IMG/VR virus record: IMGVR_UViG_3300007734_000510
Coordinates: 1 to 25,382 of that record
Reading direction: 5' to 3' (one strand)
Origin: a virus
Lineage: Duplodnaviria > Caudoviricetes
Length of the DNA stretch: 25,382 nucleotides
Shown here: piece by piece, positions 7,789-21,788 of the stretch
Numbering within the stretch: the first letter of the stretch is position 1
How the letters are laid out: each line of letters starts with the position of its first letter
Program-made: the position numbers and the translations under genes
The notes under the pieces: generated by a model
The model's input: only the letters and a program-made list of their open reading frames with translations
Databases searched by the model: none
Told to the model about the DNA's origin: nothing

Positions 7789-8775
7789 ATGAGTTCAGGT
7801 GGCGGCTATAGCGGCGGCATGGGTGGATATGGCGGAGGCTTCGGCCAGCCCCCTATGTTCGGCGGTGGATTTGGGGGCGGCTTTGGACAGCCTCCTCAGT
7901 TTGGCGGCGGATTCGGTGGAGGGTTCGGACAACCGCCTCAATACGGCGGTGGCTTCGGGTCTCCTTATGGCGGATTCAGCGGTGGCTTTGGTCAACCTCA
8001 ACAGTTTGGAGGTGGCTTTGGACAGCCTCAGCAATCTCCCTTTGGCGGTGGGTCTCAAGGCCCAATGCTTCAAGCCCAAGGCCCAAACACCTTCGGCAAT
8101 GCGTATGCACAGAGGTTTCAGAATCCCTCTGTAGGGATGTTCCCCCCGACTTCTCCCAATCCTAACCAGCCTCCTCCGGGGATGGAACTGAACCCGGATT
8201 ATATTGATCGATTTGCTGGTGGGATGGCTGGGACTTTAGAAGTTCGACCGACTGACAATAAGTTCCGTCCTATTCAACAACCCCAGCCTCAAACCGGCGG
8301 CGACGTTCAATATGCCGGAGGCAGTCCCGGTTTTTATGAGGCCCAGTTGCAGGCTCAGCAGCGTCAGGGCGGTCAAGGCTACGGCAATCAGTTTGGCGGA
8401 GACACTCAGGATATTCCTAAGCCAGTTCGTCCGGCTGGTTCTTTTCTTGGCGGACCTTATGACCCTGCGGGTGGTTATCTTGGCGGATACGGTGGCGGAT
8501 ACAGCAGCCCTTACATGTCTTCGGCAATCATGTCAGGACTTGGAAGTTTATTTGGCGGCATGCAAGGCGGTGGGTTCCAAGGGATGTTTAATCCGCAATC
8601 GCAGGCGCAGGCTCAAATGAGGGCGTATCAGCAAAATCAGCAGCGCGATCCTAATCAACCTCCTCCGGGAATGAAACTCAATCCAACTTATGACGCTGGA
8701 TACGCGATGGCTGATGACATGCCGCCGCCCGGTTCAGCCGCTGCGATTAGAAAACAACAATTTATTCCTATTTGA
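7789..8775 (+). CDS. Gly/Gln/Pro/Phe-rich low-complexity protein
   Basis: 328-aa ORF with SD-like AGGAG at 7775-7779, packed between neighbours. Repeats are conserved at the peptide level with varied codons. Confidence 0.75.
   Translation: MSSGGGYSGGMGGYGGGFGQPPMFGGGFGGGFGQPPQFGGGFGGGFGQPPQYGGGFGSPYGGFSGGFGQPQQFGGGFGQPQQSPFGGGSQGPMLQAQGPNTFGNAYAQRFQNPSVGMFPPTSPNPNQPPPGMELNPDYIDRFAGGMAGTLEVRPTDNKFRPIQQPQPQTGGDVQYAGGSPGFYEAQLQAQQRQGGQGYGNQFGGDTQDIPKPVRPAGSFLGGPYDPAGGYLGGYGGGYSSPYMSSAIMSGLGSLFGGMQGGGFQGMFNPQSQAQAQMRAYQQNQQRDPNQPPPGMKLNPTYDAGYAMADDMPPPGSAAAIRKQQFIPI
7831..8052 (+). repeat. Tandem peptide repeat GGGFG(GGFG)QP(P/Q)Q(F/Y)
   Basis: Five 'FGQP' units separated by GGGF blocks in the N-terminal quarter of the 328-aa protein. 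Confidence 0.8.
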
Positions 8776-8776
8776 A

Positions 8777-9220
8777 ATGAACCTTGATATCTCACTCGTC
8801 CCCTACGGAAAGATCGCTTATGTGATCCCGTCTCTCATTCGTTATTTAAACGAGTCGGAGTCATGGGCATTGGGACGAGCGAATATCGATGATCTTGTTC
8901 GGTTTGCATTAACCGGGCAGATGCAGTTGTGGGCGGTCTACGATGAAGAAACCAACGAGATGCATGGTTTCCTGATGACTGAAATCAAGTCATACCCACA
9001 GAAGAAAATGTTTGTGATTCAGTATTGCGCGATGACTTCGAATCACATGAAGCACATTGAGGACAAGATGCACGAAACAGCCGACAAGTTCGCCAAGGAC
9101 ATGGGCTGTCATGGCATTGAGTTCTTCGGTCGCCCCGGATGGGAGCCGCATGTTAAGAAGCGCGGGTACACCGTCAAGACGGTGGTCTTTGAAAAGCATT
9201 TTGATGAGGTGGCGAAATGA
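8777..9220 (+). CDS. GNAT-fold (acetyltransferase-like) virion assembly protein, P22 gp14 / T7 gp13 positional analogue (start re-called from 8690 to 8777)
   Basis: 147 aa from ATG 8777, just after the upstream TGA (8773-8775). Motifs 'MQLW.V', 'TEI..YP.KK', 'FAKDMGC..IEFFGRPGW...K.RGY'. Lies immediately before three ejection-type genes. Confidence 0.65.
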   Translation: MNLDISLVPYGKIAYVIPSLIRYLNESESWALGRANIDDLVRFALTGQMQLWAVYDEETNEMHGFLMTEIKSYPQKKMFVIQYCAMTSNHMKHIEDKMHETADKFAKDMGCHGIEFFGRPGWEPHVKKRGYTVKTVVFEKHFDEVAK

Positions 9221-11091
9221 GTAGCGGTGGCGGCGGCGGTGGTGGTCCACAACAGGTCACCTCAACAGTTACCCAAAGCAATCTTCCTGCCTATGTACAG
9301 CCGTACTTTGAGCAGGTTCTCCAGCGTGGCCTCTTTGAGAGTGCGCGTCCCTATCAGGAATACACGGGCCAGCGTATTGCCCAGTTTGCCCCTGAAGAGA
9401 CTGCTGCCCAGAAGGCCATCACTGGACTTCAGCGTCCTGAGCAGATTGGGATGGCAACGGACATTGCCCGTCAGGTGGGGTATGCACAGACGCCTTCTGG
9501 GTCTGATATTGCAGCCCAGTTCCGACCGGAAGCCATCAGTCCTACCTATCAGGCCACCCAGTTCCAGACCGGATATGCGCCCGGTCAATTTGATGCAGGC
9601 TATCAGGCGGGTCAGGTTGGCCCCGGTTACCAAGCCGGTACCCTGACTCCGGGCTACCAAGCCGGTCAAATCACCTCTGGATATCAGGCAGGACAGTTTG
9701 CTCCGGGGTTCCAATCACGGGAATTCCAGCCGGGTTATCAGGCGGGAACTATCACTCCGGGCTATGAGGCCGGTACGTTTACACCCGGCTATCAAGCAGG
9801 GACATTCAAAGATCGTTTCGAAGCCGGTTCCATGGCGGCTCCCGGAACAATTGAATCTTACATGTCGCCTTATCAGCAGGCGGTTACTGACATTGAGAAG
9901 CGTGAAGCGATTCGCGCTTCTGAGCAGCAGCGTCCTCAGATTGGCGCACAGGCCGTTCGCGCAGGTGCTGTGGGCGGAACCCGATCTGCTCTCCTTGAGG
10001 CAGAGCGTCAGCGTAACTTGGGTCAGCAGTTGTCTGATATCCAAGCCAGAGGCGGTCAGGCGGCATTCCAGCAGGCCCGTGAAGGGTTTGAGGCTGATCG
10101 TGCTGCCCGTCTCAAACAGGCTGAGTTTGGCTTAGGCGCATTCCAAGCACAGGAAGCCGCCCGTCAACGTGCCGGTGAAATGGGCTTTCAGGCTCAACAG
10201 GCTGGCGAACAGGCTCGTCAACGGGCTGCTGAAATGGGCATGAATGCTCAACAGCAGAACGAAGCAGCAAGGCAGGCTCAGGAGCAGTTCCGTCAGCGTA
10301 GTTTTGAGATGGGTGGTCAAGAGCGTCAGTTCGCGGCCAACATCAATCTTCAGGCACAGCAGGCGGCAGAGCAGGCCCGTCAAAGAGCCGCAGAGATGGG
10401 CATGTCTGCACAGCAGCAGCAAGAGGCTGCTCGTCAGGCACAGGAACAGTTCCGGCAGAGCGCGTTCCAGCAGACTGAAGCCGCCAGACAGGCGCAGGAT
10501 CAGTCGGGTTTGGGTCGATTCCAAGCCCAAGAGGCGGCTCGTCAACAGCAGGCTCAGTTCAGAATGCAGGCTCAACAAGCCGGTGAACAGGCCCGTCAGG
10601 AAGCCGCTCGTATGGGACTCTCTGCTCAAGAGCAGACTGACGCAGCCCGTCGCGCACAGCAGCAGTTCCAGATGCAGGCCCAGCAGTTCAATGTGGAACA
10701 GCAGCGACAGAGAGCGATGCTGGGTCTTGAGGGCGCTGCGGCAGATCGTGCTGCATTGGCCCAACGGCTCAGTGCTGCGGAACTACTCTCTGGCCTTGGC
10801 GGAACCCAACAGGAACTGGACCTTCGTCGCATTGCCGCTCAAATGGGCGTCGGTACAGAACGTCGGGGTCTCATGCAGCGGGGTTTGGACCTTGGCTACG
10901 AAGACTTCCTGCGTCAACAGGCGTATGGCCGGGAACAGTTGGGCTATCTCAGCAATCTTTTGCAGGGCGTTCCCATTCAGGCCGGTAGCACTGTTCAGAC
11001 ATTTGGTAGAGTTCCGTCAGCCGGAGAACAGGCATTGGGCGCAGGCTTAGGATCACTGGGCCTGTATCAAGCCCTTGGTCGAGGTGGTTAA
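9217..11091 (+). CDS. Ejection (DNA injection) protein 1 with two internal repeat arrays
   Basis: 624 aa, Gln/Ala/Gly-rich. N-terminal 'T.TQSNLP.Y..PY', core 'YMSPYQQAV...AGAVGG.R', Gly/Leu-rich hydrophobic C-terminus. First gene after the GNAT. Confidence 0.7.
   Translation: MSSGGGGGGGPQQVTSTVTQSNLPAYVQPYFEQVLQRGLFESARPYQEYTGQRIAQFAPEETAAQKAITGLQRPEQIGMATDIARQVGYAQTPSGSDIAAQFRPEAISPTYQATQFQTGYAPGQFDAGYQAGQVGPGYQAGTLTPGYQAGQITSGYQAGQFAPGFQSREFQPGYQAGTITPGYEAGTFTPGYQAGTFKDRFEAGSMAAPGTIESYMSPYQQAVTDIEKREAIRASEQQRPQIGAQAVRAGAVGGTRSALLEAERQRNLGQQLSDIQARGGQAAFQQAREGFEADRAARLKQAEFGLGAFQAQEAARQRAGEMGFQAQQAGEQARQRAAEMGMNAQQQNEAARQAQEQFRQRSFEMGGQERQFAANINLQAQQAAEQARQRAAEMGMSAQQQQEAARQAQEQFRQSAFQQTEAARQAQDQSGLGRFQAQEAARQQQAQFRMQAQQAGEQARQEAARMGLSAQEQTDAARRAQQQFQMQAQQFNVEQQRQRAMLGLEGAAADRAALAQRLSAAELLSGLGGTQQELDLRRIAAQMGVGTERRGLMQRGLDLGYEDFLRQQAYGREQLGYLSNLLQGVPIQAGSTVQTFGRVPSAGEQALGAGLGSLGLYQALGRGG
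9544..9840 (+). repeat. 11 x 27-nt (9-aa) tandem repeat, consensus GYQAG(Q/T)(F/I)xP; degenerate 12th copy from 9517
   Basis: TYQATQFQT/GYAPGQFDA/GYQAGQVGP/GYQAGTLTP/GYQAGQITS/GYQAGQFAP/GFQSREFQP/GYQAGTITP/GYEAGTFTP/GYQAGTFKD/RFEAGSMAA. Confidence 0.9.
10087..10680 (+). repeat. 11 x 54-nt (18-aa) helical tandem repeat, consensus (F/Q)QxxE(A/Q)ARQxxxx(M/F)(G/R)xxA; degenerate 12th copy to 10734
   Basis: FEADRAARLKQAEFGLGA/FQAQEAARQRAGEMGFQA/QQAGEQARQRAAEMGMNA/.../QEQTDAARRAQQQFQMQA with exact 18-residue period. Confidence 0.9.
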
Positions 11092-12794: not shown

Positions 12795-15700
12795 ATGCCT
12801 ACTTATCGCGTTACGGACTCCGTGTCTGGGGTAACGCTTGATTTAACAGGCGACTCTCCGCCAAACGAGCAAGAACTTCAGGATATCTTTAGAGGATATA
12901 AGCCACCTGAAGCGCCAAAGCCAGAAGAGCAATCTGCTCTTCGTCAGGTTGCTGACGTTCCGTTGCAGTTTGGAACGGGTGTCGCTCAGGGCGTTCGCTT
13001 CATCACTGACGCCTTTGGTGCAGACAATGCTGTATCTGAAAACATCCGTGGTGTAGAGGATTACCTCAGCAATCTTCTCAGCGCACAGGCTAAACAAGAT
13101 CAGCAAGAAGTTGCCCGTATCTTTCAGGACGCTCAGGACAAAGGACTGGGCGAACAGTTGGGTGCCGGTCTTCGCGCATTGGCTGTGTCCCCGGTGGACT
13201 TCCTTGCTCAGGGTCTAGGCACTGCTGTCCCCACTATCGCAGGTGGTCTTGCAGGTGCGGCTCTCAAGGGCGGCACATTGGCGGCTCGTGCTGCAACCGC
13301 CAGTGCGGTGGGTACCGGTATCGGTACTGTGGGTGGCGCAGGTATCACCAAAAGCACCATCTACGATGAGGTTAAACGCGAACTTGAGGCGGCTGGTGTT
13401 GACCCAGAAACCGCTGATGAACGCGCTAAGTTGGCTCAGGAATATGGTGGCGAGAATCTGGATCAGATTCTCCTTGGTGCAGGCTTGGGCGGACTTGCTG
13501 CCGGAACCGGTTTAGAAAAGGTTCTCGCAAGTCGCATCCTCAAGAATGCAGGCATTGTTCCGAAGTCCATCAAGACCGCAGCATTTGCAGGTGCCAAGGA
13601 AGCCGCACCTGAATTCGTTCAGGCTGCACAGGAACAGATTGCAGGCAATGTCGCCCTTCAGCGTGAAGGCTTTGAAGACATTCCCACATTGCGTGGTGTC
13701 GCCTCTGCTGCGGCACTGGAAGGTTCACTTGGATTCTTACTTGGCGCTGGCGTAGATGTCGCACTACCTGCACAACAGCAGCAGGAATACGACGCAGCCC
13801 GTGCCAACATCACCAACGAAGTAGATCGCCAAAGAGAGGCGGCTCTTCGTGAACAAGAGACCATAGACGCACAGAAGTTTATTGCTGCACTGAATGCAGA
13901 GAATAAGCGCCGTCAGCAGGGGCAGGCAGATCAGGTCAATCTTGATGCGGAAGCGGCAAACATTCGCGCCAGAGCGGGAGAGATTGCTCCGCCCACACAG
14001 GATGAAGTCAACACACTGGCTACGCCGATGCGCGGCCCTGATGTGTCCAATGACGTTCAGTTCGGTGTTGCATACGGACAAAAGATTGCACGGGAACTGG
14101 GCGACTACTTCCCCAACTTTGGTCAGTTCGCCGTCACCCAAGGCGAAACGATTCGCAACGAAGCAGGCGAAACGCAGCCGACCTTCACCATCATCGACTC
14201 TGAAGGCAAGCGTTACGGTCAGCCGCTCACGACTTTCGAACAAGCCAACGCCACGGCATACAGTCTCAACAAGGAAGTCCTGAACCAGAATGTTCGGGGT
14301 GCCATCCTCAATTCACTTGAGACTTCAAGTCAGGCTTATGACCCTGAGACCACTCAACGTCTCTTCAGTTACGGCTATCGAACACTGAATCCGGATGCCA
14401 ACACGTTTTCAACGGTTGCCATCAACGAAGCAGCCAAAACCGTTGGCCCTCAGTATGCAGAGGCACTGAGTTGGCGACAGGTTGAAGCACTTCCAGAAGT
14501 CAAGGATCGTCGTGGCCGCAGGATTGGTTATCAGTACACCATTGAGGGGCAACCGCCTAGAACCATCATTGGTTTAACCAAGGCGCAGGAACTTAACAAG
14601 ATGCGTTCTCAGGAAGGAAAACCTGAGAGCAACACCTTCAGTCTGCAAGAGACTAAGTCCGCATTAGGCAAGAGTTTTGCGGCTATCACCAAGGATGTGC
14701 CGATTGATCCAAAAATCGGCAAGCAAGGCGCTATCAATCAGATTAAGTCTCTTCTTCAGTCAAAGAACGTCATATCTGAAATTGATTCCCCAGAAGTTAA
14801 TGCCCTTGCCAAGGGATTGACCGGTAAGAGTTCGGTCAATGACATGGACTATGGCGACATCCGCCTGTTCTACAAGAAACTGGCAGACCTGCCGCGCTTC
14901 GAAAATGAAACTCGTCTCCCTGAATTTACGTTTAAACCATACAACAGGGAGAACTTCGTCAAGGCATCGAAGTTCATTCAGCAGTCCAACGCTCAGGGTG
15001 TAAAGCCTACCCAAGATCAGATCATCGAAGCGGCAGGCATCTCCAAGGATGACCCGAAGATCGATGAGAAGATCACTGCACTACAGGCTGACCTTTCTAA
15101 GCAGGGCGTCAAGAACGAGCCTAAGCCTGTTCTCGCATTGCCTGCTCCTCCGGGTGGAACCATTGACCTAGAGCCGCTACGAAAGGCTCTCCGTGCGAAT
15201 CTCAAAGGGTTCGGCCTACAGGATGTGGGTCTGTCTCTTGAGCGCAATCTGATCAAGCCCACTGGCGAGATCGTCCAAGAGGGAACCGAAGGGATGTTCA
15301 TCCCTGCCATGAGGCGGGTGTTTTTGGCAGTGGATCGCATTGACCCGGACGGATCACTGACTCCTGAGCAGCGTTTAAATGCTCTTAGTGAGATCATGGA
15401 TCACGAGGTCATTCATGCCGCACGGTTTATGGACCTGTGGAAACCCAATGAATGGTCCAATCTGGAAAGGACCATTGCCAAAATTAAGAAGCCGGGTACT
15501 GATCAGAGTTACTTGCAGATCGCCCAACAGGGCTATGCAGATCAGAACACGGTGGTTCAGATCGAAGAAGCCGTCGCAGACATGTGGCGCGACTATCGGG
15601 CCAAGCGTTTAAAGGTCGCTGGCAAACCGCAGAACCTGCTGGAGCGTCTCGCCCAGTTCTTCCAGAGACTCCGTTCTGCTTTGGCCGGAACCGGGTTCCA

Positions 15701-18700
15701 GACGTATGGGGAAATCCTCAATCGACTGGAAGCAGGTGAAATCGGTGCGCGTCAGCGGGGTGAAATTCGTACCCTCCGTGCCACAGAGGAAGCCGTTGCC
15801 AGAGCCGGTCGTTTGCCTGAGCGATTGCAGGGCATATTGGGCGCTCCTGCGCCACGAGCGGCGGCAAGGGCTGCTGCGGTAGCACCTGCTGCGCCAGTCG
15901 CTCCTGCGACTCCTGCGGCCCCTGCCCCTGCTGCACCTACCGCCACACGACCCCAAGACTTCGATGTCGGTCTCCTTGCGGGGGCTGATGTTCGCGAGTC
16001 GCGTGTACGCAATCCTCAGATTGACACGCCACAGTTTCAACGGTTTATCAAAGACAGCAAAGCGGTTGATGAGTCCGGAGAGCCACAAGTTTTTTACCAT
16101 GGCACGACAAGAGATATTGATGTATTCAGGCCAAAGCCGGGACACAAACTAATATTTATTTCTCCAGATCCTAACTTTGCATCTCGTTATGCTGCGAATA
16201 ACATGCTTTTCTTTCAGCCGCCACGAGATATGCAAGATGTTGACTGGGCAGAAAGGCAAATAGCAAATGCACAATTTGGTGATCAAACCAGATCGCCTGC
16301 CATTTACCCTATTTATGTTAACGCAAAAAATCCGTTTGACTTTCAAAACAAGTCCCACATTGCTCAACTGGAAAAAGATCTTCCCAAAATACTTTCCAAA
16401 TCAACCCCTTCAAGAGGCGCATATACAAAAGCAGAAATAAGAAAAGCCATTGATGAAATAAAGAAAGGTCGATGGGCATACATTGAAGATGTTGCAGAAA
16501 ACACGGACTTCTTTGAAAGGTCTGGTTACGACTCTATTTATGTAGAAGAGGCTGGCGTTAGAAACCTTGCTGTCTTCAGCCCAAACCAGTTGAAGTCCGC
16601 CGTTGGAAACGTTGGCACATTCGACATCACTCGTCCGAGCATTCGGGAGTCGCGTGTACCTAGAGAAAAGACCTTAGAAGAACTTGAGGCGGAAATCGCA
16701 GCACTTGACGCAGCGGAAGCAGCAGAGCGTGAGACAGTATCGGAAGTAGAAAGTTTTGCGAGACGTTCTGCACAGTTTGCTTTTGACTTTCAAAAAGACT
16801 ACAGCGATCTTCAAGACAGCATAGATTCTAGTAGAGACAACGTCCGCGAAACTCTAAAGGAAAATCCTTTTGGACCGAACTCAACTAGGTATGAAGAGCA
16901 GGCATTTTCTGCTTACGATGCAGAGGTTGAAAGACTAAGGCAAAAAGGAAGGGCTGCTCCGAGCATTCGGGAGTCGCGCAGACTTCAAACGACTCCCATC
17001 CAAAGCGCACTGGACCTTGCCCGTCGCAAGTACGCAGATTATTCGACTGCCTCCGAAGAGGAATTCTTCGGTCGCTTCTGGCCCACCCTGTTGTCCACTG
17101 TCAGGGGAACTGTTGCTCCCACTAACAGCAACATTCGCACTGCGGCTAAACGTGCGATCCGTGACATGGACCAGTGGCTGAAGGACAACCCACGGTTCCG
17201 GGACTACTACAACAACGACATGGCAGCGACCAAGCGGGTTCTTGAATCTGCTTATGGTCCGCTGAGTGACGAAGACTTCCTGTATTACCGGATTGCAAAC
17301 GGTCTCACTTCACCTGCCACAAAACTTCCGTCCAATGTGGGCGATGCGCTGCTTGTCTTTGACCTTTGGAAGAACAGAGGGAATCTTGACGACATCAAGA
17401 TGGGACTCAGCGCCAAGGGCAATGTCGTTATTGACGAATCTCCGATCAGTATTTCTGGAACCACTGGTGCCAACAAAGCCAGATCGCTCAAGATCATTGA
17501 TCGTTTGATCCGTGAAAAAGGCAGCATCAACAATGCAGTCAACTTCCTGAAGGAAGGCGTCACGGTCAAAGACCTTCATGCGTTTAACCGTGAGATGGGA
17601 TACAAGGGTAACGCAAGCGACATTGGCGCTATACAAGACCTTGTTGAAATGGCGACGGGTCAGCGCGATTTGATACCAAGGATGTTTATCTTTGGTAAAA
17701 AAGTTGGCGCATACACTTTGAACATGGCGGGTGACTCGCGCTACAATACGATTGACGTTTGGGAATCGCGGTTCATCAGAAGTTATTTTGATGGACTGTT
17801 TTCTGAAAGAACTGGTCTCCCTGAAGTTGTATCAGAGGATCAACTCTTTCAGGATTTCACCAAACTATTTAAAGAGGAATTCGAAAAAGCAACTAACCAG
17901 AAATGGGATAACTCAGCACTTCAGGCAATGAGGTGGTTTTACATCCTCAACGCCGCAAGCAAAGCAGGTTATCGCGGAGCATCCACCAATGAAACGATCT
18001 CAGAATACACCCGTCGAAGCCTCCAATCCCCTAGAAAGGGCCGCGCTTATCGCAGGGGAACGGGCGATGCAGCGACTGAAAGAGCAGGCACTGTCATCCG
18101 CGAAAGCAGGATGGGATCCCAACGCACCGGAGTCGGAAGAGGACGGGCTGAGGGCAGAAGCCTTGCGCCGCTTGAAGGTGCGCCAACTGTCGAAGGGGCG
18201 TCAGGGCCAGACCCAAGATTAGTTTCGGTTGCTGAGGATTACGCACGAAAGGCGGGAATCCCATACACCCGACAGCCGCGCTACGTTGAAGTAGACAAGG
18301 GTCGTGCCAAGCGAATTGCTGATGCCTATGAGGCGATGCAGCACTCGCCCAATAATCCTGCGGTTAAACAGGCTTACGATGATCTGATGCGTCAGGTCAT
18401 GGACCAGTACAACTCACTGGTCGATGCCGGGTATACCTTCACATTCTTCGATAGCAAGACTGATCCTTATGCGGGTAACCCATGGAATGCCATGCGTGAC
18501 CTGCGCCAAAACCAAAGGATGGCGGTCTACGGAACCTATGATGGTTTCGGTACCGAAGGACTTACCACAGGGGCTGTTCAAAACAATCCTCTGCTGGCAG
18601 ATACCGGACTGCGGTGGCCTGATCAGAATGGCGATGAACAAATCGTCACCGGCAATGATCTTTTCCGTGCAGTTCATGACGCATTTGGTCACGGGTTAGA

Positions 18701-21700
18701 AGGCGCAGGGTTCCGGGCAAGAGGTGAAGAGAACGCATGGCAGGCCCATGCTCGTTTGTTCACCGGCCCCGGCCTTGGTGCATTGACTTCAGAGACACGC
18801 GGCCAAAACAGTTGGTTGAACTACGGTCCCTACGGCGAAAGAAACAGAAACGCCAAAGTAGAGGACACCGTATTCGCTGAACAAAAGACCGGCTTAATGC
18901 CTGAGTGGACATGGCAGGAGGGGCTTGATGTAGCCCCCACCGTGGAACCCATTTCGCGTGAAGCCCCGCGCCCTCAGGCGCAACTTGACGATGCAGTCGC
19001 CAAGGCTGAAGCAGATGTTGCTTCAACGCCCACGATGGCAGTGCCGCTCTACAATCCGGGTGCTTCACCTGAAGCCCTGTATGTCGCGCAGAATCCTGAC
19101 CAAGGATTGAAACTTACACCGGAAGAGAACATCCGATACTCGCGCAGGAATCAGCCGCAGTATCAGCCGGGTGTTGAGCAGATTCTGGACAAGTTGACGC
19201 AAGACCCACCGGCCCAGACTCCGGCGCAGACGGTCATCAATTCGATGCGGTTGCCGCCGTTCCGCGACACCATCGACAAGATTCGCCAGAACCTAATCTT
19301 CAACTACTCACGGTTGGAGTTCTATCGAAAGAACCACCCGTCGTTGATGCATCAGACTGCGGCCACTGGATCACTTGAAGCGGCAGAGTTTGCGGATCGC
19401 TCTAAGGCGATCTTCGCATCTGCTGTGAGAAGCGGTGTCCCCGTCTACGAGAACGGGGGTTTCACAGTGAAGCCGTTCGTTCACAACGGTCGCGAATACA
19501 AGAACGGTCTCATTGATGTACTGGCTCCGCTTTACAACAACCCGTATGGGGTGAGCCTTGAGAGACTGGCACAGGCGTATGCCATTGCCCGTCGCGGTGA
19601 GCGTTTAACCAGAGAGGGGAAGGTGGTTCCGGGTGACCCGGCAGACTTCCCGCAGTTGTTGGCTGAGGTGCGGCGGTATACCAATCCTGAGACAGGCAAC
19701 TCCATCATCGAAGACTGGTTCGATACATGGCAGGCGTACAACTCCAACACCATCAAGTTCCTGCGCGACACGGGAATGATCGATGACGCAGGCGCACAGT
19801 TGTGGCTGAACCAGTCCGACTATTTCCCGTTCTATCGCACTGACAAAACGGGCAAGGACATCTCTCACCCAAGAGTCTTTGGTGGCCTCACTTCAGCGAC
19901 CAACCTCAAGGCTTTGAAGGGTGGAGAAGAGGCCATCAATGTTCCGCTCATGGAAGCCATCCTGACGAACCTTGATTCGGCTATCGCGATGGGCATGAAG
20001 AACGTGGCCCAGCAGAGAATCGTTCGCGACATGATCAACATTGGTCTGGGTCGTATGGTTCAGCCGGGTCAGAACATCGAAGGACAACCTGCGGTCACCT
20101 TCAAGATCGGTGGCAAGAAGTATGCTGCGTTCATCGATGACCCGTTGGTGTTCCAGTCCATGCAGACGGTACCCGAAGTCGAGATGGACGGTCTCTTGGG
20201 GAACCTATTCCGGACACCGGCTGTGGTGTTGCGTGAACTGATTACCCGTGAACCGGGATACATGGTCGCGAACATGCTTCGCGATACTGCCTCTGCTGCG
20301 CTGACCACCGGAGCAAACATCATCCCGGTGGTGGACACAGTGCGTAACTTCTCGCGAGGTCTTGAGAACCTTCAGAAGGTTGGCGTTGTGGGCGGCTATG
20401 ACTTTGCCCGTGACCCACAGGACATCGTAAAGTTCCTCTCTGATGAAGCCCGTCGCGTAGGCCACGAGTTCCCGGTACGCGAAGAGACCAAGTGGGATCA
20501 GTTTGTAAACTCGCGCTACCTGAGACCGCTTACTGGCGCGTGGGACATGTTGGGCAGAATCTCTGACAAGTCAGAAGCCGCGACTCGCAATGCGGTTTAC
20601 GAGGATACCTTGGCCCGTACTGGTGACTGGGTGCAAGCCGCGTATGACGCACTGTCTGTAATCAACTACGGACGGCGTGGACGGAACCCGCAGTTGCGTT
20701 TAATCACTGCAACTGTGCCGTTCTTGAATGCTCGTATCCAAGGTCTGGATAAACTCTATCAAGCGGCCATCGGACAAACGGGTGCATTCCCTGAGCGTCG
20801 GAAGAACATCCTGCGCTTTGTGACTCGTGCAGGCTTGATGGTTGGATTGACTGGCCTCTACTACGCCATGATCTCTGACGATGAGTTGTACGAGAACGAG
20901 AATCCTGAAGTCAGGGACAATTACTACATTCTGCCCATCAAGAAAGCCGACCTTGCCAACAAGGAACCGGGCTTCGCAGTCAAGATTCCGATTCCGTTCG
21001 AAGTGGGTGTTCTCTTCAAGACCATCCCTGAGCGGATCATGGATTCCTACTACAAGGATGCTCCAGCCAAGGACTTGCAGAACACACTGACTCGTGCGGC
21101 GACCAGCACCTTTGCGTTTAACCCGATCCCGCAGACTGTGTTGCCGATCTTCGAAGTGGTTGCCAACTATGACTTCTTCACCGGTAGAGCCATTGTTCCG
21201 CAGTACATGCAGAACAGGGACGCTATCGCACAGGCGCGGTTTGGCACCAACGAACTGGCGCGTATGTTGGGCGAAGCGACCGGCATATCGCCGCTGAAAC
21301 TGGATCACATGATGAACGGCTATCTGGGTAGCCTTGGCACCTACACTTTGGATGTCGTGGACAATGTCCTTCGTGACAACGACCGCGCATACCCAGAGCG
21401 TAAGTGGTTTGAGTATCCGTTCGTGCGTCGGTTCTTCACGACTGCCATGAGACCGGGGTTACAGGAACAGTTCTATGAACTGGATAACCGTGTAAACGGT
21501 GTGGTCCAGAGCATGAATGCCCTGAAGAAAGAAGGTCGCGCTGATGAACTCCAAGCCTACGTCATGGAGAACCAGAACATTCTGGCGCTCAAGAAGGGCG
21601 TGAGTGTCCTCGACAAGATGGTAAGCAACTATCGGGATCAGAAGAATGCGATCCTGAGAATGGACATCGATCCTGAGGAGAAGCGGCGTATCATCGATGA

Positions 21701-21788
21701 ACTGGATCGCGGTATCGCGTTGCAGTTGAAGGTGATCCCAGAACTCAGGAGATTGGCTTACCGTGAGCCGGACGAAACACGAGAGTGA
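12795..21788 (+). CDS. Giant polyvalent ejection protein: Gly/Ala-rich membrane segment, HExxH metallopeptidase, ART, unknown domain, HhH glycosylase-like domain, HDxxGH domain, LPD38
   Basis: 2997-aa uninterrupted ORF with the domain motifs listed in the sub-features. Last and largest gene of the ejection cluster. Confidence 0.85.
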   Translation: MPTYRVTDSVSGVTLDLTGDSPPNEQELQDIFRGYKPPEAPKPEEQSALRQVADVPLQFGTGVAQGVRFITDAFGADNAVSENIRGVEDYLSNLLSAQAKQDQQEVARIFQDAQDKGLGEQLGAGLRALAVSPVDFLAQGLGTAVPTIAGGLAGAALKGGTLAARAATASAVGTGIGTVGGAGITKSTIYDEVKRELEAAGVDPETADERAKLAQEYGGENLDQILLGAGLGGLAAGTGLEKVLASRILKNAGIVPKSIKTAAFAGAKEAAPEFVQAAQEQIAGNVALQREGFEDIPTLRGVASAAALEGSLGFLLGAGVDVALPAQQQQEYDAARANITNEVDRQREAALREQETIDAQKFIAALNAENKRRQQGQADQVNLDAEAANIRARAGEIAPPTQDEVNTLATPMRGPDVSNDVQFGVAYGQKIARELGDYFPNFGQFAVTQGETIRNEAGETQPTFTIIDSEGKRYGQPLTTFEQANATAYSLNKEVLNQNVRGAILNSLETSSQAYDPETTQRLFSYGYRTLNPDANTFSTVAINEAAKTVGPQYAEALSWRQVEALPEVKDRRGRRIGYQYTIEGQPPRTIIGLTKAQELNKMRSQEGKPESNTFSLQETKSALGKSFAAITKDVPIDPKIGKQGAINQIKSLLQSKNVISEIDSPEVNALAKGLTGKSSVNDMDYGDIRLFYKKLADLPRFENETRLPEFTFKPYNRENFVKASKFIQQSNAQGVKPTQDQIIEAAGISKDDPKIDEKITALQADLSKQGVKNEPKPVLALPAPPGGTIDLEPLRKALRANLKGFGLQDVGLSLERNLIKPTGEIVQEGTEGMFIPAMRRVFLAVDRIDPDGSLTPEQRLNALSEIMDHEVIHAARFMDLWKPNEWSNLERTIAKIKKPGTDQSYLQIAQQGYADQNTVVQIEEAVADMWRDYRAKRLKVAGKPQNLLERLAQFFQRLRSALAGTGFQTYGEILNRLEAGEIGARQRGEIRTLRATEEAVARAGRLPERLQGILGAPAPRAAARAAAVAPAAPVAPATPAAPAPAAPTATRPQDFDVGLLAGADVRESRVRNPQIDTPQFQRFIKDSKAVDESGEPQVFYHGTTRDIDVFRPKPGHKLIFISPDPNFASRYAANNMLFFQPPRDMQDVDWAERQIANAQFGDQTRSPAIYPIYVNAKNPFDFQNKSHIAQLEKDLPKILSKSTPSRGAYTKAEIRKAIDEIKKGRWAYIEDVAENTDFFERSGYDSIYVEEAGVRNLAVFSPNQLKSAVGNVGTFDITRPSIRESRVPREKTLEELEAEIAALDAAEAAERETVSEVESFARRSAQFAFDFQKDYSDLQDSIDSSRDNVRETLKENPFGPNSTRYEEQAFSAYDAEVERLRQKGRAAPSIRESRRLQTTPIQSALDLARRKYADYSTASEEEFFGRFWPTLLSTVRGTVAPTNSNIRTAAKRAIRDMDQWLKDNPRFRDYYNNDMAATKRVLESAYGPLSDEDFLYYRIANGLTSPATKLPSNVGDALLVFDLWKNRGNLDDIKMGLSAKGNVVIDESPISISGTTGANKARSLKIIDRLIREKGSINNAVNFLKEGVTVKDLHAFNREMGYKGNASDIGAIQDLVEMATGQRDLIPRMFIFGKKVGAYTLNMAGDSRYNTIDVWESRFIRSYFDGLFSERTGLPEVVSEDQLFQDFTKLFKEEFEKATNQKWDNSALQAMRWFYILNAASKAGYRGASTNETISEYTRRSLQSPRKGRAYRRGTGDAATERAGTVIRESRMGSQRTGVGRGRAEGRSLAPLEGAPTVEGASGPDPRLVSVAEDYARKAGIPYTRQPRYVEVDKGRAKRIADAYEAMQHSPNNPAVKQAYDDLMRQVMDQYNSLVDAGYTFTFFDSKTDPYAGNPWNAMRDLRQNQRMAVYGTYDGFGTEGLTTGAVQNNPLLADTGLRWPDQNGDEQIVTGNDLFRAVHDAFGHGLEGAGFRARGEENAWQAHARLFTGPGLGALTSETRGQNSWLNYGPYGERNRNAKVEDTVFAEQKTGLMPEWTWQEGLDVAPTVEPISREAPRPQAQLDDAVAKAEADVASTPTMAVPLYNPGASPEALYVAQNPDQGLKLTPEENIRYSRRNQPQYQPGVEQILDKLTQDPPAQTPAQTVINSMRLPPFRDTIDKIRQNLIFNYSRLEFYRKNHPSLMHQTAATGSLEAAEFADRSKAIFASAVRSGVPVYENGGFTVKPFVHNGREYKNGLIDVLAPLYNNPYGVSLERLAQAYAIARRGERLTREGKVVPGDPADFPQLLAEVRRYTNPETGNSIIEDWFDTWQAYNSNTIKFLRDTGMIDDAGAQLWLNQSDYFPFYRTDKTGKDISHPRVFGGLTSATNLKALKGGEEAINVPLMEAILTNLDSAIAMGMKNVAQQRIVRDMINIGLGRMVQPGQNIEGQPAVTFKIGGKKYAAFIDDPLVFQSMQTVPEVEMDGLLGNLFRTPAVVLRELITREPGYMVANMLRDTASAALTTGANIIPVVDTVRNFSRGLENLQKVGVVGGYDFARDPQDIVKFLSDEARRVGHEFPVREETKWDQFVNSRYLRPLTGAWDMLGRISDKSEAATRNAVYEDTLARTGDWVQAAYDALSVINYGRRGRNPQLRLITATVPFLNARIQGLDKLYQAAIGQTGAFPERRKNILRFVTRAGLMVGLTGLYYAMISDDELYENENPEVRDNYYILPIKKADLANKEPGFAVKIPIPFEVGVLFKTIPERIMDSYYKDAPAKDLQNTLTRAATSTFAFNPIPQTVLPIFEVVANYDFFTGRAIVPQYMQNRDAIAQARFGTNELARMLGEATGISPLKLDHMMNGYLGSLGTYTLDVVDNVLRDNDRAYPERKWFEYPFVRRFFTTAMRPGLQEQFYELDNRVNGVVQSMNALKKEGRADELQAYVMENQNILALKKGVSVLDKMVSNYRDQKNAILRMDIDPEEKRRIIDELDRGIALQLKVIPELRRLAYREPDETRE
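15160..15770 (+). other. Zincin-like metallopeptidase domain (MPTase of polyvalent proteins); boundaries approximate
   Basis: 'EGMF', HEVIH (15402-15416, aa 870-874), distal 'IEEAVAD' (15561 on) and amphipathic helix 'LLERLAQFFQRLRSAL'. Confidence 0.8.
15991..16978 (+). repeat. Dispersed in-frame direct repeats encoding (I/V)RESR at domain boundaries
   Basis: TCCGAGCATTCGGGAGTCGCG is identical at 16634-16654 and 16958-16978. TTCG(C/G)GAGTCGCGTGTAC occurs at 15991-16008 and 16642-16659 (17/18 match). Spacings of 651 and 324 bp are both multiples of 3. Confidence 0.9.
16005..16655 (+). other. ADP-ribosyltransferase domain (ART-PolyVal-like)
   Basis: 'TPQF..F..DSK.VDE.GEP.VFYHGT', 'IFIS.....A..YA', 'IYPIYV...NPFD', 'GYDSI', 'AVFSPNQLKSA.GN.GTFD'. 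Confidence 0.85.
16980..18095 (+). other. HhH-GPD DNA glycosylase-like domain
   Basis: 'LTSPAT', 'FGKKVGAY..NM.G' (17691 on), 'TIDVWESR' (17748-17771) and 'LQAMRW' map in order onto LSxQT / GxK / VDxHxxR / QxxL(W/F) of HhH glycosylases. Confidence 0.55.
18111..18930 (+). other. Uncharacterised conserved domain with HDxxGH...GEE...H...ETRGQNSW motifs
   Basis: 'NDLFRAVHDAFGH' (HDAFGH 18675-18692), 'GEENAWQAH', 'ETRGQNSWLNYGP', 'FAEQKTGL.PEW'. Confidence 0.6.
20205..21785 (+). other. C-terminal LPD38-containing region (large polyvalent protein domain 38); boundaries approximate
   Basis: 'P.YMVAN.LRD', 'VPFLNARIQGLDK', 'RDNYYILP', 'IPIPFEVG.LFK..PER', 'NYDFFTGRAIVP', 'SPLKLDH...GYLG.LG'. Confidence 0.8.

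Follow-up and report, generated by a model that had tools for sequence, protein, structure and literature searches.

The window analyzed here is a 25,382-base virus record (IMGVR_UViG_3300007734_000510). On its plus strand, an open reading frame (ORF) at positions 12795 to 21788 encodes a 2,997-amino-acid (aa) polyvalent protein, the last in a run of large virion-region genes. A prediction made from the DNA letters alone (the original prediction) had picked out a pentapeptide that recurs along this protein and had proposed it as the site at which the protein is cut. The five (I/V)R(E/Y)SR copies are all where they had been placed: VRESR at 15990 to 16004 (motif 1), IRESR at 16641 to 16655 (motif 2), 16965 to 16979 (motif 3), and 18096 to 18110 (motif 4), and IRYSR at 19131 to 19145 (motif 5). 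Upstream of the array is a zincin-like metallopeptidase (MPTase) domain (15159 to 15830; aa ~789 to 1012), which has, as claimed, an intact HEVIH (15402 to 15416; aa 870 to 874) and a downstream EE pair (15564 to 15569; aa 924 and 925). It is followed by an Ala/Pro-rich, weakly conserved linker (15831 to 15989), at which the homology of relatives stops. Four modules lie between the motifs: module 1, matching the ART-PolyVal ADP-ribosyltransferase (ART) family (16005 to 16640); module 2, a 108-aa unit with no assigned function (16656 to 16964); module 3, predicted from a structure model and fold comparison to have the HhH-GPD (DNA glycosylase superfamily) fold (16980 to 18095); and module 4, a widespread phage domain with invariant H-D-x-x-G-H and G-E-E-N motifs and no known fold (18111 to 18935). 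The segment behind this HDxxGH domain had been taken for a linker and is in fact a conserved element of ~55 aa (18966 to 19130), kept in all 29 relatives described below, with P2084 and A2098 invariant. If motif 5 were cut, this element would remain joined to the last cargo. From motif 5 to the stop codon runs a conserved C-terminal scaffold (19146 to 21788) with an LPD38 domain (20880 to 21425).

The ORF closes a plus-strand series of lysis and virion genes; those ahead of it encode, among others, a lysozyme and the virion proteins phrog_3287 and phrog_1645. ART-PolyVal (aa 1092 to 1276) and LPD38 (aa 2696 to 2877), both above the Pfam cut-offs, are the only Pfam matches in the protein; the HhH-GPD fold and the HExxH domain complete a set of disparate domains in one chain. 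The protein is a phage-type polyvalent protein, with a zincin MPTase, an ART, and an LPD38 scaffold. By analogy with gp47 of phage phi24B, which was detected in virions, the chain is likely to be injected into the host with the DNA.

Not one of 2,000 shuffles yielded two or more [IV]R[EY]SR copies, and a relaxed five-residue pattern matched five times in the polyprotein ORF and never in the 10 other plus-strand ORFs of the window. Motifs 3 and 4 coincide with segments of low predicted confidence (pLDDT below 50) in the structure model of module 3; a chance W-E-S-R core at aa 1656 to 1659 sits within a folded helix. The count is less telling when it is made post hoc, as any 4-mer occurred four times in 20 of 300 shuffles and any 5-mer three times in 2 of 300. 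Judged in this way, repetition within a single protein is only moderately unusual, and the family data therefore carry the weight.

A scaffold-based scan gave 56 viral loci. The HExxH and a mappable last motif were present in 43 proteins (the window's included), and 29 remained after dereplication; L001, being the same contig as L005, was left out. The cargo between peptidase and scaffold varies among these relatives and includes ART, ASCH, GP88, DUF7178, and unassigned units. We counted 167 clusters of homology breakpoints: 40 were no more than 5 aa from an [FYEM]S[RK] match, where 6.1 were expected, and 67 no more than 20 aa away, where 22.3 were expected. The excess at 20 aa was 43.2 for the motif and at most 20.6 for the best of 400 random patterns. 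At the orthologous last site (motif 5 of the window), located by homology alone, Ser was present in 29 of 29 proteins and Arg in 26, and the residue before Ser was Phe in 17, Tyr in 12, and Glu in none. Because the pattern had been picked after inspection of the 29 proteins and related proteins share events, we added independent tests, of which this homology-fixed last site is one.

The other tests drew on more distant proteins. Viral stretches bearing the scaffold pattern are estimated at ~1,500; among 160 distant loci, 124 had at least 900 aa ahead of the scaffold, and 105 of these were nonredundant. In the 105 proteins, FSR occurred 76 times against 21.6 expected (ranking 7th among tripeptides) and YSR 52 times against 16.7 (29th). 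Pattern-free sampling on the 81 distant proteins with this MPTase type returned [IPAV]-[RLM]-[FYE]-S-R. When a matrix was trained only on 47 distant sites, it ranked the window's own sites 1, 2, 3, 4, and 6 of 2,997 positions. In the ejection protein of phi24B, the same matrix gave the top ranks to three YSR sites, which lie between LPD1, the MPTase (HExxxH), MuF_C, and the scaffold. Of the matrix's 40 matches in cassette zones, 30 had a breakpoint no more than 20 aa away (22% expected), and only 5 matches fell in the 54,694 aa outside these zones. The motif flanks the MPTase on both sides in distant proteins, and the motif-bearing proteins of this set share only about 25 to 45% scaffold identity and have unrelated hosts. 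The boundary motif is thus real and family-wide, in the form hydrophobic-x-[F/Y/E]-S-[R/K].

Close relatives revealed a second property of the motif. The L001/L005 protein, 88 to 99% identical to the window's, lacks exactly aa 1066 to 1390, and the joint lies within the motif codons; this indel failed the flank filter of the clean-indel set and was counted from the pairwise comparison only. Among the 29 relatives, all five clean indels (149 to 429 aa) end no more than 9 aa from a motif, and four of them start no more than 4 aa from one; the fifth starts at P-A-S-S-R. We also examined 8 of the 20 metagenome runs containing the stretch, where the evidence consists of contigs, some of low depth, and found motif-exact alternative joins in 5 of the 8. 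A 2,587-base contig in run X11 lacked the 324 bases of module 2 and was joined at a perfect 21-nucleotide direct repeat common to motif copies 2 and 3 (16634 to 16654 and 16958 to 16978), which flanks this module, and a contig in run X16 lacked the 651 bases of the ART. Loose ends in runs X7, X12, X16, and X18 led from motif 1 to 2, from motif 2 to 3, or from a motif into foreign sequence; joints at motif 1 itself were seen in L001 and in runs X7, X16, and X18. Runs X2, X3, and X19 had no motif-exact alternative join among the joins listed. Modules are gained, lost, and swapped at the motif codons, which the original prediction had missed. A separate change was noted in one contig of run X12, in which the central insert of the ART (window 16189 to 16457) is replaced by 279 other bases, within the domain and away from the motif.

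These joins could mean that the motif is a mere recombination footprint, a short DNA repeat for cassette traffic with no role as a peptide. The perfect 21-nucleotide repeat around module 2 and the joints inside motif codons would fit, as would the low third-position guanine-plus-cytosine (GC) content of modules 1 and 2 (0.37 and 0.34, versus 0.51 to 0.67 elsewhere) and the presence of a Sak-like annealing protein in a 95%-complete relative and of NinB in the window; the Sak-like protein is a plausible agent of short-homology exchange. The codons tell against it. Over 85 sites, a few of them probably false, Ser is encoded by TCT (26), TCG (18), TCA (12), AGC (10), TCC (6), and AGT (2) and Arg by CGC (18), AGG (18), AGA (17), CGT (8), CGG (5), and CGA (4). 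With all six codons of each residue in use, AGY and TCN serines included, the cassette ends do not carry an integron-like fixed DNA site, and it is therefore the peptide that is kept. Copy 4 of the window, written ATC CGC GAA AGC AGG, had been read in the same way, as a sign of selection on the peptide, and the family codons bear this out. The peptide is also kept at the nonmobile scaffold edge and in proteins ~25 to 45% identical in the scaffold, and recombination would account for the location of exchange, not for retention of the peptide. We regard a footprint without peptide function as very unlikely.

The MPTase domain offers a candidate partner for the peptide. H870, E871, H874, E924, and E925, which include its metal ligands and general base, are invariant in 25 of 25 aligned relatives; profile searches with the domain gave no Pfam match and one 43-position PDB match of doubtful significance. 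A co-fold of the kind suggested by the original prediction, run with the MPTase, Zn, and the motif-5 peptide (aa 2098 to 2131), scored 0.77 versus 0.00 for the best of three controls. Of 157 solved complexes, 116 reach the mark that this result passes, as do 2 of 215 mismatched pairs. At least 65% of contacts recur between runs, and the partner pLDDT is at least 48. In the model, R2114, Y2115, and S2116 contact H870, E871, H874, E924/E925, and a predicted substrate-binding strand (aa 831 to 837); in the tightest pairs, I2113 to R2117 lie along this strand, with R2114 placed against H874 and E925 and S2116 against H870 and E871. The motif is therefore predicted to bind in the protease cleft. 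Thermolysin-type geometry would set the Tyr-Ser bond over the metal, and the model suggests a cut before the serine, with Arg-Tyr as the alternative. Across the distant proteins, a junction motif by the relaxed pattern accompanies this MPTase type in 56 of 81 cases, compared with 4 of 18 for other HExxH types (Fisher p = 0.0004). We consider it probable that the motif is the cut site of the polyprotein's own zinc protease, the resident zincin. The corresponding claim of the original prediction gains from the position of the motif at module edges, from selection on the peptide, and from its modeled place in the active site, and it stands as a prediction.

Several observations weigh against this reading or narrow its reach. 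The co-fold used custom alignments and a Zn passenger, which puts it outside the calibration, and the peptide alignment was centered on the motif. Protease-peptide complexes are common among solved structures, and the pass may reflect likeness to them. By the strict pattern, the contrast between peptidase types is weak (39 of 81 versus 4 of 18; p = 0.065), and a search for a protease-less control group found none, all 18 complete profile-missed proteins still having HExxH. The residue before the predicted cut (P1) is chemically mixed, Glu as against Phe or Tyr. As many as 98 of the 167 breakpoints are more than 20 aa from a motif, many of them in the linker after the MPTase, in inserts within domains, or at F-A-R variants, and a breakpoint that several relatives share is not an independent event. 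Where the last cargo meets the ~55-aa element, no clear motif is present in the window and other relatives, and two other large proteins that contain a module 2 homologue lack the motif. The matrix trained on distant sites fails on Pag-Yong1, VvAW1, PTXU04, Vibrio 1.232.O, and Page. VvAW1, PTXU04, and Page have no clear motif array, and Bacillus phage Page, a single case, lacks both HExxH and an evident repeated motif. Pag-Yong1 (L060) has an ESAR dialect in four copies, seen in one sequence with no relatives found among viral contigs, and Vibrio 1.232.O (L062) has LAS[IL] three times. The expectation that motifs would mark the domain edges holds in relatives, as an excess near breakpoints, and in the window, where they fall in low-confidence linkers; extended to every variable boundary, it was overstated.

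The co-fold bears on binding only, and the motif might occupy the cleft uncut. It would then be a tether or pseudo-substrate, serving either to compact the chain for packaging or to restrain the protease until a host target (peptidoglycan or a defense protein, for instance) is encountered. The virion RNA polymerase of N4, which also has an MPTase, is packaged uncut, its HExxH domain still part of the full-length chain (PMC5512222), and a preprint on phi24B assigns the gp47 peptidase to peptidoglycan breakdown, a cell-wall role (bioRxiv 10.64898/2026.04.10.717836); both count against cutting as well as for a tether. Uncut binding does not sit easily with a single cleft and five motif copies, all of them at module edges and supplied afresh with every new cassette. 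The motif on both sides of the MPTase in distant proteins is what excision predicts, and the catalytic residues are invariant. We hold uncut binding to be unlikely.

Alternatively, another protease could cut the motif, either a phage prohead protease (x-x-E and then Ser) or a host enzyme. IRE↓SR does resemble the A-X-E↓S specificity described for gp245 of SPN3US (PMC10052503). The orthologous last site, with Phe or Tyr before Ser in every case, argues that Glu is not required. No Peptidase_S78 match was found in the records of five relatives, three of them at least 90% complete, by a search whose control was positive in 4 of 14; S77 prohead protease was likewise found in 0 of 5, by a search whose control was silent and in records that are possibly incomplete. 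A 95%-complete relative has four pattern sites in its polyprotein and three scattered matches, its capsid gene not being identified, and the motif persists across unrelated hosts. Cutting by a different enzyme is, in our estimate, quite unlikely.

A further possibility is a role in sorting or threading, with the motif serving as a signal to the portal, to another of the ejection proteins, or to a chaperone. The protein is encoded among virion genes and would, if ejected, have to pass through a narrow tail, a passage that is established for podovirus ejection proteins. The neighboring large virion-region proteins all lack the motif, and the partner modeled for it, the sole partner modeled, is the MPTase cleft. 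Such a signal seems to us highly improbable.

The original prediction had described the cargo as four effector enzymes. That description suits module 1 and, as an enzyme-like fold, module 3; it overstates the case for the other two. Judged from its sequence, module 1 is an ADP-ribosyltransferase with its motifs intact (74.1 bits against a cut-off of 31.2; YHGT, FISPD, and YVEE present). On its structure model (pLDDT 83), module 3 is an HhH-GPD fold: compared with 3n0u by VIA, it gives a Z of 10.1 and a root mean square deviation of 3.8 over 189 aligned residues, and the best 23 matches (Z of 5.8 to 10.1) are all glycosylases or related base-processing enzymes, the next standing at 4.3. Foldseek and sequence searches with module 3 were without match. 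The fold matches extend to queuine salvage enzymes and to gp46/PUGT, a phage enzyme that modifies bases, and the fold therefore does not fix the reaction. Comparison of module 3 with a DUF7178-bearing module gave no profile match, and DUF7178 is not named in the full-text literature found.

Module 2 has a ~70-aa core with 20 relatives, many of them free-standing proteins of 67 to 73 aa with no annotation; a structure search gave only weak, unnamed Atlas matches. This ~70-aa acidic helical family (window 16731 to 16950; P0169, P0170, P0174, and P0177) was seen both free and embedded in ejection proteins. The HDxxGH/GEEN domain of module 4 has 959 relatives and is modeled at a pLDDT of 90; it also terminates separate phage proteins of ~390 aa with Gly/Ala-rich N termini (P0070, P0075, P0087, P0105, and P0138). 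Foldseek gave no PDB match, VIA gave a best Z of 2.6, and the viral structure matches were all unnamed. The domain probably represents a metal-binding enzyme family; that it is a second zincin is unsupported by these comparisons. The existence of modules outside the array fits their release as free units.

Under the reading that we prefer, a single chain, presumably injected, would be split at the motifs into separate units by its own zinc protease. A cut between [F/Y/E] and Ser would give six pieces of 115, 25, 12, 43, 38, and 100 kDa, five of them beginning with Ser. Such cutting would be somewhat more likely to take place after ejection than in the head, since a single chain gets all of the modules packaged. 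The short homology between motif codons would serve as a crossover handle, and selection would retain only those exchanges that leave a site at both ends. For LPD38-type ejection proteins from freshwater to Stx phages, we lean toward a general view in which one peptide is both protease site and recombination handle, the proteins form a self-processing cassette platform, and the dialects follow the protease lineage. If this is true, any domain placed between two motif copies would be packaged, injected, and released. Exchange at the motif would explain how whole domains are gained and lost without loss of processing. A boundary rule would also help to spot uncharacterized injected domains; ART, ASCH, GP88, DUF7178, GNAT, and units without assignment already lie between copies.

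A mining pattern needs the context matrix: the bare tripeptide was too loose, with many matches within domains, and exact-repeat discovery protein by protein found little because the motif is degenerate. Other forms were seen in phiARM81mr (L058; FSK/FSQ/MSQ around the peptidase) and in CF418P1 (L065; ASR/ESR). Three proteins with another HExxH type (L175, L196, and L130) have N-P-[LF]-S-[SG] in common at the scaffold junction, possibly a further dialect. One polyprotein gene with an R-R-Y-S-R dialect is split over four frames (L015:2016-11968), whether by misassembly or by genuine frameshifts. The window's putative ejection genes include those for a Gln/Ala-rich repeat protein (9217 to 11091) and a Gly/Gln/Phe-rich low-complexity protein (7789 to 8775), both without family matches, and one relative encodes a GroES-like co-chaperonin beside its portal gene (L226:1593-1943).

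Polyvalent proteins were defined in 2017 by Iyer et al., who proposed that the MPTase processes the chain into units and noted that DdrB of P1 is cut before packaging (PMC5512222). The window protein shares with that class its disparate domains, the MPTase with HExxH and a downstream Glu, ART, LPD38, and the virion gene context; the main text of that paper, as far as available, gives no cut site, boundary motif, or exchange at a motif. gp47 of phi24B is likewise a polyvalent protein with LPD38; it was found in virions, and its proposed role is that of an ejection protein. It carries an HExxxH, its three YSR sites coincide with the edges of its Pfam domains, and the accessible part of the preprint reports no processing of it (bioRxiv 10.64898/2026.04.10.717836). 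In prohead maturation, a short degenerate motif likewise guides a phage protease (gp245 in SPN3US) to virion and ejection proteins, with Ser preferred after the cut; unlike here, the protease is a protein of its own that cleaves behind Glu to remove propeptides (PMC10052503). In the window protein and its relatives, P1 is mostly aromatic, the sites lie between cargo domains, and the candidate zincin is in the same chain. T4 gp21 is a further example of a prohead protease. RNA virus polyproteins process themselves at repeated short sites, and MARTX and polymorphic toxins exchange effector modules; these use other proteases and other means of delivery and are analogies only for a double-stranded DNA phage virion protein that acts on bacteria. 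The virion polyprotein of crAss-like phages resembles the present one in that fused virion proteins are thought to be cut and a zincin is suspected; it differs in having a fixed RNA polymerase module rather than a variable array, and no motif is named in the text available (10.1101/2020.03.07.982082). The portions available of PMC9503650, PMC13434306, and PMC10052503 name no such motif either, and our searches of the full-text literature, with subscription papers and supplements outside their scope, found no published cut-site or boundary motif. The class and its proposed processing by the MPTase have thus been known since 2017; the present analysis adds to that proposal candidate sites at residue level, the scissile bond predicted from the model, and the fragment sizes to be expected, and what appears to be new is a real boundary code, together with module exchange at the motif.

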